Source: Iphione sp. A-MEVVRFRX5
Taxonomy: Eukaryota
Reading direction: 5' to 3'
Assembly (NCBI GenBank): GCA_976226885.1
Contig: OZ320317.1
Location: 33,604,001-33,668,000 of the forward strand
DNA length: 64,000 bases
The translations under genes were made by a program, and so were the position numbers. The notes below the pieces were generated by a model. It did not search any database. It had not been told where the DNA came from and was given only the letters and a program-made list of their open reading frames with translations. Below are positions 20,243 through 28,408 of the stretch, in pieces (position 1 is the stretch's first letter; the number at the start of each line of letters is the position of its first letter).

Positions 20243-20252
20243 CTGCCCCCCC
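20243..20252 (-). other. Polypurine tract (GGGGGGGCAG)
   Basis: Purine-rich run immediately 5' of the 3' LTR on the minus strand. Confidence 0.8.
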
Positions 20253-20279
20253 GCAACACTTTTCTCGTCCCGAGAAAAA

Positions 20280-27239: not shown

Positions 27240-28408
27240 CCTGTCTTCTTGGCCCCTCCTGTCGTCTTCCAGCGGCCTTCTAGCTGCTCGATCTTCTCCG
27301 CCAGCTTAAGTAGGAGTTCCTCCGTGGGGTTAGGCTTCGTGGAGGGTTCCTTGGGCCCCCCTTCGGTGGTCATAACAGCATTACATCCCAAACGAGTCCC
27401 GCTGCCTCCGCCCTTCTTGCCTTCCCGCTCCTCTCGGTTGCGATAGTACGCCTCCGCGAAAGCAGCCTCGGATACAGCCGCCCTGAACCCATCCACTCTC
27501 TTCTGCACAATCCACTGCCAAACTCTTTCATCCTTCACCGCCTGGACAAAGTTTTCCCGGCATTGTTCCTCCGCCCAGTGTCCTTTCACTCCCGGGTAGG
27601 CCCTCCTCACCAAGCGCTCGATCTCATCTGCTAGTTGAAAGAGCTCTTCACCCCCTTTCTGCCTGTAGGACTTCAAACGCTGTTTAAACAAGTCAACCTG
27701 ATCGGGGGACTGGAAGCGATTGGCAAGCACCCTGGTTAGACGGCGAAAGGCTCCCCTCTCTCTCACGTTCACACGAGCATTACGCATAGCGGCCCTCGCA
27801 GGCCCCCGGAGGCACACCCCCAGCTGTACTGCTTTCTCCTGATCTTCCCAATGGTTGGCCATAGCGACCAGGCTGAAGTGGTGGAGGTAGTCCTCCCAAT
27901 CTTGGCTGCCGTCGAAGGGCTCAGGCTTAACTCTACCCCTTCGTTGGCCACCTACCTCCACTCCGGTGAGTTCCTCCTCCTCCTCACTTAAATCCATTTC
28001 AGCTGAGGGCTCGAGGTCGGAGTCCGACTCCGCCTCTGGAACAGTTCCGTCCACATCAGTGGACCCTCCCGCGGGCACCACCGCGTCCTGGGGCACCCGC
28101 GGGGGAATTCCTTCCTCCGCCTCTGCCTCTCTGGCCTGGTCCGAGGGGTCACCCCCCTCCGATCCCTCTCCGCCGCCCCACAGACGAGAAGGGGTCCGCG
28201 CGGGCCGCTCCGCCCGCCGTTCCGGTTGTCTCTCCGCCGCATCGTCGAGGTAACCTCCTCTGCCGCTCCTCGTTACTCTTCGGGATTCACCTCCCTCCTC
28301 CGCAGGCTGCTGGTCTGACGCCGGGGGCTTGCTGGTAGCGCCTGATGTGATAGGCCCCTTTGCCCGGCGTCGGATCCCACCGCTGCCACCAATGTTAGCT
28401 TCGGCCAT
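27149..28408 (-). CDS. gag: Gag (419 aa) with capsid-like region and CCHC zinc knuckle
   Basis: VKPEPFDGSQDWEDYLHHF is typical of Gypsy gags; CFRCGKEGHFRRDC is the knuckle. The ATG lies 16 nt inside the 5' LTR. Confidence 0.93.
   Translation of the reverse strand: MAEANIGGSGGIRRRAKGPITSGATSKPPASDQQPAEEGGESRRVTRSGRGGYLDDAAERQPERRAERPARTPSRLWGGGEGSEGGDPSDQAREAEAEEGIPPRVPQDAVVPAGGSTDVDGTVPEAESDSDLEPSAEMDLSEEEEELTGVEVGGQRRGRVKPEPFDGSQDWEDYLHHFSLVAMANHWEDQEKAVQLGVCLRGPARAAMRNARVNVRERGAFRRLTRVLANRFQSPDQVDLFKQRLKSYRQKGGEELFQLADEIERLVRRAYPGVKGHWAEEQCRENFVQAVKDERVWQWIVQKRVDGFRAAVSEAAFAEAYYRNREEREGKKGGGSGTRLGCNAVMTTEGGPKEPSTKPNPTEELLLKLAEKIEQLEGRWKTTGGAKKTGCFRCGKEGHFRRDCPEKPKPAENAQPSSQ
27170..27176 (-). 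other. Candidate -1 ribosomal frameshift heptamer G_GAA_AAC
   Basis: Lies in the gag/pol overlap (27149-27305) just after the CCHC knuckle and in the correct gag phase; pol is in the -1 frame relative to gag. Confidence 0.55.
28374..28391 (-). other. Primer binding site complementary to the tRNA-Leu 3' end
   Basis: + strand ATCCCACCGCTGCCACCA matches the 3' 18 nt of eukaryotic tRNA-Leu(AAG/TAG type) including CCA; it sits 1 nt from the LTR. Confidence 0.9.

Follow-up and report, generated by a model that had tools for sequence, protein, structure and literature searches.

The window, by which we mean the whole stretch of 64,000 nucleotides that was analyzed, contains on its minus strand a young Ty3/Gypsy retrotransposon, whose internal region, with a GC content of 62%, corresponds to the interval 20243-28392 (Table 1). 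The element possesses the protease-RT-RNase H-integrase order, paired LTRs bounded by TG...CA, a primer-binding site, a polypurine tract and a short target duplication, and its pol is of the Gypsy type, with no env domain recognized in Pfam scans of three frames. The primer-binding site presumably matches the 3' end of a tRNA-Leu, and the two LTRs differ by two 8-bp array units and two substitutions. The start codon of gag is positioned inside the LTR end (U5, 28393-28408), upstream of the primer-binding site, and an ATG is found at the same place in family B (below). The pol frame, overlapping gag in the -1 frame, does not end with integrase: two C2H2 fingers come next, then a long stretch of low complexity, a tandem repeat and, at the C-terminus, a conserved domain. 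The copy studied here has its tail broken by an in-frame TGA at 21309-21311, before the C-terminal domain.

Table 1. Features of the element and of its predicted internal promoter cassette.
Feature	Coordinates	Strand	Remarks
5' LTR (TG...CA)	28393..28668	-	10 GCGGAG sites
Primer-binding site	28374..28391	-	
gag, 419 aa	27149..28408	-	Retrotrans_gag and CCHC knuckle; 10 sense sites vs 4.5 expected
pol frame	21309..27305	-	protease, RT, RNase H, integrase, then in-frame zinc-finger protein
Dispersed GCGGAG sites, n=51	21618..28392	both	41 sense, 10 antisense
Predicted internal promoter	23445..23518	-	
GGCGGGAA	23511-23518	-	internal promoter cassette (predicted)
CCAAT	23498-23505	-	internal promoter cassette (predicted)
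GCGGAG site	23483-23490	-	internal promoter cassette (predicted)
Inverted site	23461-23469	-	internal promoter cassette (predicted)
TATAAA	23445-23452	-	internal promoter cassette (predicted)
ATG	23394-23396	-	follows the cassette
Two C2H2 fingers	23202..23372	-	helices RKDNLQR and RWEDLKR
126/138-bp tandem repeat	20684..21615	-	inside disordered tail; more sites on both strands
Conserved C-terminal alpha/beta domain	20283..20654	-	about 110 aa; beyond the stop in this copy
Polypurine tract region	20245..20262	-	
3' LTR	19983..20242	-	7 sites

Copies related to this element, designated here family A, are represented by at least about 105 finger-region matches at 80% identity or higher among the 150 listed, many having open frames of more than 2300 aa, and the sister family B is represented by at least 90 matches at the same level. 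A 4-bp target duplication is found in 19 of the 32 family-A copies with both ends, and insertions of both families strongly favor ATAT targets with 4-bp duplications, family C being less restricted. At L051:8822-9181, a decayed C-terminal domain of the A/B type is found beside an unrelated, finger-less Gypsy, likely the outcome of a nested insertion. The remainder of the window presents three further observations. Three copies of the word GCGGAG, discussed below, occur at 19692-19843, in the host sequence no more than 300 bp from the 3' LTR, probably by chance or as part of an old fragment, since other insertions show no such excess. A weak match to an immunoglobulin V-set domain on the plus strand (49996-50538, E 2.5e-4, below cut-off) marks a probable host exon. 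An element-like stretch (41276-42788) has 56-bp terminal inverted arms (77%) and 156-bp tandem units, with a 40-bp near-perfect hairpin inside it (41856-41942).

The internal region is densely populated with the word GCGGAG. Exact counts on the plus strand of 20243-28392 are 47 for CTCCGC (the sense orientation of the element) and 16 for GCGGAG (antisense), versus 7.6 and 2.3, respectively, expected from strand composition, and the 55,173 bp outside the element and its LTRs contain 17 sites (0.3 per kb). Twelve of the 63 internal sites belong to the tandem repeat and the tail (20243-21617) and are not independent, while the remaining 51 (21618-28392) are dispersed at random spacing, with a mean gap of 130 bp. 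Even spacing is not seen in this dispersed set, and a 10.5-bp phasing was rejected, as it does not exceed the null when a range of periods is scanned, and family B does not show it. The next base is G in 42 of the 51 dispersed sites (11.8 expected). The sites extend into the enzyme domains (4 in the protease, 1 in the 483 bp of the RT core, 3 in the RT connection, 3 in RNase H and 5 in integrase), and GCG-GAG encodes 8 of the 12 Ala-Glu dipeptides of gag and 25 of the 33 of pol. In the 5' LTR, nine sites, at 28545-28647, lie upstream of the TATA box and one is downstream (28509). A previous, sequence-only reading of this DNA had estimated approximately 45-47 sense and 14 antisense sites with about 15 in some 55 kb of flanks, and had described sites within RT, RNase H and integrase, the predominance of GCG-GAG among Ala-Glu codons and the occurrence of out-of-frame copies, all of which agree with the exact counts.

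The excess is not a product of protein sequence and codon usage. With both held constant in a synonymous-codon shuffle, the enzyme core possesses 23 sense sites versus 6.9±2.2 and 6 antisense sites versus 1.3±1.1, and sites other than in-frame GCG-GAG, i.e., out-of-frame and antisense, number 18 versus 5.3 expected. When hexamers are ranked with the tandem repeat excluded, GCGGAG is placed first and its reverse complement third, and all 18 one-mismatch hexamers are unenriched (largest z 1.9). The sequence-only reading had named disappearance of the enrichment under a codon-usage-preserving shuffle as grounds for abandoning its interpretation, and the enrichment persists. A dicodon shuffle, also proposed there, leaves an excess that is small (16 observed versus 11.8, p=0.03), because codon pairs, and hence much of the signal, are preserved by construction. 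Enrichment on both strands supports an action of the sites at the DNA level.

The GCGGAG sites are under purifying selection, as revealed by comparisons involving 51 family-A and 27 family-B copies. In family A, compared with four other lineages of at least three copies each (9 unclustered copies left out), none of 18 in-frame sites has changed at any silent position between lineages, versus silent changes in 7 of 22 GCG and 21 of 70 GAG codons outside sites, and the 4-fold positions changed are 3 of 39 in sites versus 235 of 630 outside (p=9e-5). In family B, for which one other lineage was compared, the respective values are 2 of 48 and 106 of 616 (p=0.014), and the codon-level tests in this one-lineage comparison are not significant. 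Silent divergence between the two families is near-saturated, with 72% identity of the proteins and only 37% identity at 4-fold sites (29-30% between unrelated families), and GCG has been retained between A and B in 10 of 11 cases in sites versus 3 of 15 outside. The families share 14 of the 30 core site positions of family A, 16 being private to A and 20 to B; thus the sites are both conserved and turned over. Taken as a whole, the GCGGAG excess is sharply specific, present on both strands, and conserved beyond the need of the protein. The protein itself has been reshaped by the sites, through changes of amino acids and not of silent positions alone. Ala-Glu followed by Val, Ala, Asp, Glu or Gly occurs 14-16 times per 1000 aa in A/B, versus a median of 1.45 and a maximum of 5.5 among 120 database homologs, and 16-20 times in A/B cores versus 3-8 times in seven sister representatives. 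One RT position is Ala in A and B, versus Pro in 84 of 87 parsed homologs. The earlier proposal of selected synonymous sites is thus sustained for the silent positions, but it needs to be widened to altered amino acids.

The candidate reader of these sites is encoded by the element. The C2H2 pair is confirmed as two Cys2-His2 units with base-contacting residues at helix positions -1, 2, 3, and 6; the Pfam matches are below the curated cut-off, both fingers together align with solved finger proteins at E 1e-11, and the linker between them is one residue longer than canonical. The helices are RKDNLQR (A) and RKDNLKR (B) in finger 1, and RWEDLKR (A) and RKDDLRR (B) in finger 2. The C-terminal finger reads the 5' triplet. 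Among selected helices, RKDNRKR and RSDNLTR bind GAG and RSDELTR binds GCG, in the same finger-to-triplet order (PMC1920264 Table 1). With finger 1 assigned to GAG, finger 2 to GCG and the C-terminal finger placed on the 5' triplet, the pair would be predicted to read GCG-GAG, with a next-base preference, as Asp at helix position 2 possibly makes a cross-strand contact to the next base, according to a source that also describes finger-code predictions as frequently failing (PMC7293014). The match between the sites and the element's own fingers, proposed in the previous reading, is thus supported by helices that independently predict GCG-GAG, and it appears highly probable that these fingers are what reads the sites. 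Purifying selection acts on the finger pair, at a dN/dS of 0.00-0.12 across seven natural pairs, as well as on the C-terminal domain, at 0.04-0.21 across five pairs with both copies complete. The latter domain is confidently predicted to adopt an alpha/beta fold (pLDDT 82), with no match in Pfam, PDB sequences or the Atlas and no clear fold match, the best one (Z 7.2, rmsd 3.5, 97 aligned) being within chance range. Homolog searches with the finger region returned nothing or generic multi-finger proteins only, and the finger pattern was found in 0 of 120 Pol homologs, in a search whose length limit could exclude fused forms.

Upstream of the fingers, families A and B share, with the same spacing, a cassette of GGCGGGAA, CCAAT, a site, an inverted site and TATAAA, in this order, with an ATG 55-58 nt further on. 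We take its words to be those of E2F (GGCGGGAA being E2F-like), NF-Y and TBP. Depending on the word, conservation extends to 43-51 of the 51 copies of family A and to 23-27 of the 27 copies of family B, a similar cassette is present in families H and N, and a partial one is present in family G and in one subfamily of C. In 15 of 16 representatives, a Met is found 1-42 residues before finger 1. The CCAAT/TATA arrangement suggests an internal promoter; in families A and B, GCGGAG is present in the LTR and again in this predicted promoter.

The same genome provides controls for these observations, in the form of a clade of approximately 14 GC-rich (56-67%) Gypsy families and subfamilies possessing the two-finger gene (L134, L139, L135, L138, L060, L171, and L188 are examples among the sister families), most of which also carry the shared C-terminal domain. 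The sequence-only reading had also named an equal excess in GC-rich Gypsy elements devoid of zinc fingers as grounds for abandoning its interpretation. These finger-bearing families constitute the GC-matched comparison, the five finger-less Gypsy types sampled having 38-47% GC. Twelve other zinc-finger families or subfamilies reveal no core excess of sites: the core z for GCGGAG is 8.5 and 10.2 in A and B, versus -1.4 to 0.8 in 15 non-A/B representatives, whose best core hexamer is at z of 5.4 or less, about the 95% level of the null, and one further family-C copy is at z 2.8. What the sister families do possess is a word of their own. In the U3 of each family, the repeated word consists of GCG and a triplet particular to that family (GAG, GCA, GCT, or GGG). 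The sister families cluster their own U3 word in a 0.6-1.8 kb spacer between integrase and fingers, and often also in the first 500 bp past the primer site (the gag start), with 0.3-1.9 own words per kb in the core. The correspondence between U3 class and spacer counts scores 7.74 of 11, versus 2.76 permuted (p=5e-5), in a permutation that left out A, B and one C subfamily and with a statistic that ignores relatedness. In finger 2, Asp3 and Arg6 are invariant and Arg-1 is replaced only in the one family-G copy; finger 1 varies among families. The finger-1 code as predicted fits poorly outside A/B, counting against a simple reading: Asn stands at +3 in families D, E, J, L, and M, yet their words are GCA or GCT, family C is predicted to read GAA and has GAG, and family G is predicted to read GAG and has mostly GGG, with no core excess. 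Families C, G, H, and N also have GCGGAG in their U3, and their finger 1 differs. In family F (L059, L063, L148), the residues of finger 1 that contact bases have been lost, yet the finger is conserved between subfamilies; the U3 of this family is without the GCG array and is rich in TGCA words.

Families A and B differ from these relatives in spacer length, only 180-192 bp, and in a site density of 8-9 per kb everywhere. Their 64 internal sites compare with 17-35 in sister families, so that pure relocation of a spacer cluster into the core is insufficient as an explanation, and it was rejected. As A and B are sister lineages, core saturation counts as one event, and its link to a short spacer has a sample size of one. 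The spacer (0.2-1.8 kb) is in frame with pol in all sampled families at a dN/dS of 0.4-1.0, which the internal promoter alone does not explain. The promoter-like placement of sites in sister families points to activation as the basic job of the system, and these approximately 14 families with differing fingers and words represent a natural test set for the co-evolution of a protein and its sites.

Whether a coat of protein protects resident copies was assessed through the decay of methylated CpGs, an indirect, long-term germline measure that is blind to histone or piRNA silencing. In resident copies, transitions are 4-9 times as frequent at CpG as at non-CpG positions, which does not fall below the level of the unsaturated families. 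In nearest-copy trios (usable for 50 of 51 copies in A, 25 of 27 in B, 18 of 28 in C, 20 of 22 in H, and 9 of 10 in N), the CpG ratios are 5.9 in A, 3.9 in B, 2.9 in C, 4.7 in H, and 3.4 in N, with intervals overlapping between families, and the ratio is 1.65 in a finger-less family of five copies. Ratios calculated from LTR pairs range from 6.4 to 9.3 for A and B, and from 6.9 to 7.0 for C and N. CpGs within sites change at rates of 0.040 versus 0.035 for other CpGs in A and 0.027 versus 0.031 in B, and no local protection was detected near sites (28 of 5042 versus 251 of 40563, p=0.70). A test with singletons, in which A (2.29) seemed less methylated than C (4.10), is reversed by the trios and is unreliable, because recurrent CpG changes bias the larger sample. 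Judging from this decay, resident copies appear to be methylated in the germ line, sites included, so that the element has silencing to overcome, and as each site contains a CpG, a mutation hot spot, mutation works against the sites. The sequence-only reading had preferred anti-silencing or protection to simple promoter activation. Its assignment of the sites to the element's own fingers stands, but a lasting methylation shield is unsupported, in-site CpGs decaying like others, and the placement of sites in the sister families points to activation instead.

Considering these data together, we lean, if only slightly, toward density-based self-recognition by an element-encoded activator, activation being what we infer from the placement of the sites alone. 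Host factors would start a separate mRNA for the finger protein at the internal CCAAT/TATA promoter, and the protein would in turn stimulate this promoter as well as the LTR, closing a positive feedback loop. As two fingers provide a specificity of 6-7 bp, a word too short to identify the element, recognition would rely on density, 8-9 versus 0.3 sites per kb. The relatives cluster sites at promoter-like places; the A/B lineage, with a spacer of only about 180 bp, would have written sites into coding DNA by point changes, spreading them over the whole body, and the finger protein may load along an entire methylated copy, switching it on. The effect would be a transient re-activation and not a lasting protection, because resident copies still show methyl-CpG decay. 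The fuller proposition, of a private transcription-factor system in this animal Gypsy clade, every family with a zinc-finger regulator, an internal promoter and a cognate word to itself, and of one lineage coating its gag-pol so that a whole silenced provirus is re-opened, is more tentative, and we place it somewhat short of even. If true, it would mean that an animal retrotransposon possesses a system for countering silencing in a sequence-specific manner, by way of a second code that overwrites gag-pol every 130 bp or so and was even paid for with altered amino acids in RT. It would also be an unusually clean regulatory code over conserved enzyme genes, with selection measurable at each site.

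Other explanations need to be weighed against this account. One is that the protein, fused to Pol in the particle, coats newly made double-stranded cDNA, so that sites matter before or at integration, whether by protecting the cDNA, by helping it into the nucleus or into the genome, or by priming the new insertion. The in-frame spacer of every sampled family, maintained despite its dN/dS of 0.4-1.0, and selection seen in replicating lineages while resident copies show no protection would both agree with such a role; nevertheless we consider it unlikely, as the fusion is also found in the twelve sister families or subfamilies, which have few own sites in their cores, the promoter cassette suggests that the protein is made separately, and insertion flanks have no site excess (0.15 and 0.06 per kb). 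These flank densities, together with the ATAT targets, were also the basis for rejecting integration targeting by the fingers. The strong form of the sequence-only reading, a protein durably shielding the whole provirus from DNA methylation or heterochromatin, is a still weaker candidate: the distribution of sites over the whole body, the lower singleton CpG ratio in A and the demethylation by VANC and TnpA where motifs are dense, as described in the sources discussed below, speak for it, but the singleton result is biased and reversed by trios, and neither the in-site CpG rate of family A nor the LTR-pair ratios, similar in A, B, C, and N, bear the mark of a shield.

The remaining explanations seem less plausible yet. 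A self-repressor, limiting copy number or blocking cryptic or antisense transcription within the element, would be consistent with sites across the transcribed body and with the highest trio CpG decay being that of family A; it is improbable, given that sites flank TATA boxes in the LTR and in the internal cassette, which are activator-like positions, that both families are numerous, many of their copies being intact, and that the CpG intervals of the families overlap. About equally improbable is a host factor (Sp/KLF, Egr, Zelda-like, or other) reading GCGGAG, the finger match being coincidental. Here, the shared U3 word of C, G, H, and N and a GC-box-like GGGGCGGAG in the LTR can be set against the shift of the U3 word between families, while its GCG half, the prediction for the conserved finger 2, stays, and against the missing GCG array in the family with a degenerate finger 1. 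GGGCGG, GGGCGGGG, Egr-type 9-mers and GGGCGGAG are presumably the Sp/KLF and Egr consensus words; the first three are unenriched, the GGGCGGAG context is found at only 6 of 51 sites, and Sp/KLF and Egr contexts were rejected as an explanation. CCHC knuckles bind GGAG. A signal at the RNA level, for packaging through the Gag knuckle or for enhancing splicing, or else a neutral bias in codon pairs or in mutation, would agree with sense sites being four times as numerous as antisense sites, but this explanation seems very improbable: the antisense excess is equally large in fold terms, one-mismatch purine-rich words are unenriched, the CpG of the site works against its own persistence, GC-matched sister families have no excess, and neutral bias is largely refuted by the conservation of silent positions between lineages.

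Density-based self-recognition by the element's own activator has counterparts among known systems, and the comparable self-activating or counter-silencing factors that we found described belong to plant DNA transposons and complex retroviruses. The closest is VANC of the Mutator-like VANDAL elements of Arabidopsis, likewise element-encoded, with a family-specific short motif whose density confers specificity and with protein and motif diverging between families (PMC5735166); here, the dense motif is that of A/B, and the sequence-specific binding is predicted. VANC motifs are described as mainly non-coding, in one orientation and expanded by tandem repeats, in contrast to the 51 of 63 internal sites dispersed here in coding, non-repeat DNA on both strands, which likely arose by point changes. 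VANC is also an apparently unrelated protein of a plant DNA transposon, as opposed to an animal LTR retrotransposon, and it acts through demethylation, of which no footprint is seen here. Another likeness is to Tas/Bel1 of foamy viruses, whose gene, 3' of the structural genes, has an internal promoter (only predicted in our case), and which binds both this promoter and the LTR and combines an N-terminal DNA-binding part with a C-terminal effector part, comparable to the predicted fingers and C-terminal domain (PMC4929722). Tas, however, is a separate retroviral gene with few response elements, unlike a C2H2 pair in frame with a Gypsy Pol and dozens of sites in gag-pol, and the Gypsy pol without env in Pfam sets this element apart from a spumaretrovirus genome with env and tas/bet. 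TnpA of Spm/CACTA serves as its own activator with family-specific motif clusters of at least 4 per kb, but it binds element termini and is a transposase-derived protein of a DNA transposon (bioRxiv 10.64898/2026.08.24.746577). Among Gypsy elements, TRP28 of the plant Retand, with family-specific tandem repeats nearby (PMC11963269), and brtn of the fungal Boty are putative DNA-binding accessory genes between pol and the 3' LTR; these are antisense, with no identified site or coding-region saturation in the portions of text covered. Other accessory proteins are catalogued in an Arabidopsis atlas (PMC13547354). We found no title or abstract describing a Gypsy-encoded C2H2 factor with sites in the coding region, in a literature search covering subscription journals and Repbase incompletely. 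A study of Gmr1-like elements reportedly mentions zinc fingers. The system described here likely works like VANC, TnpA or Tas and is a member of none of these; it would extend their strategy to an animal LTR retrotransposon through an ordinary C2H2 module, the very fold that hosts use to silence such elements.
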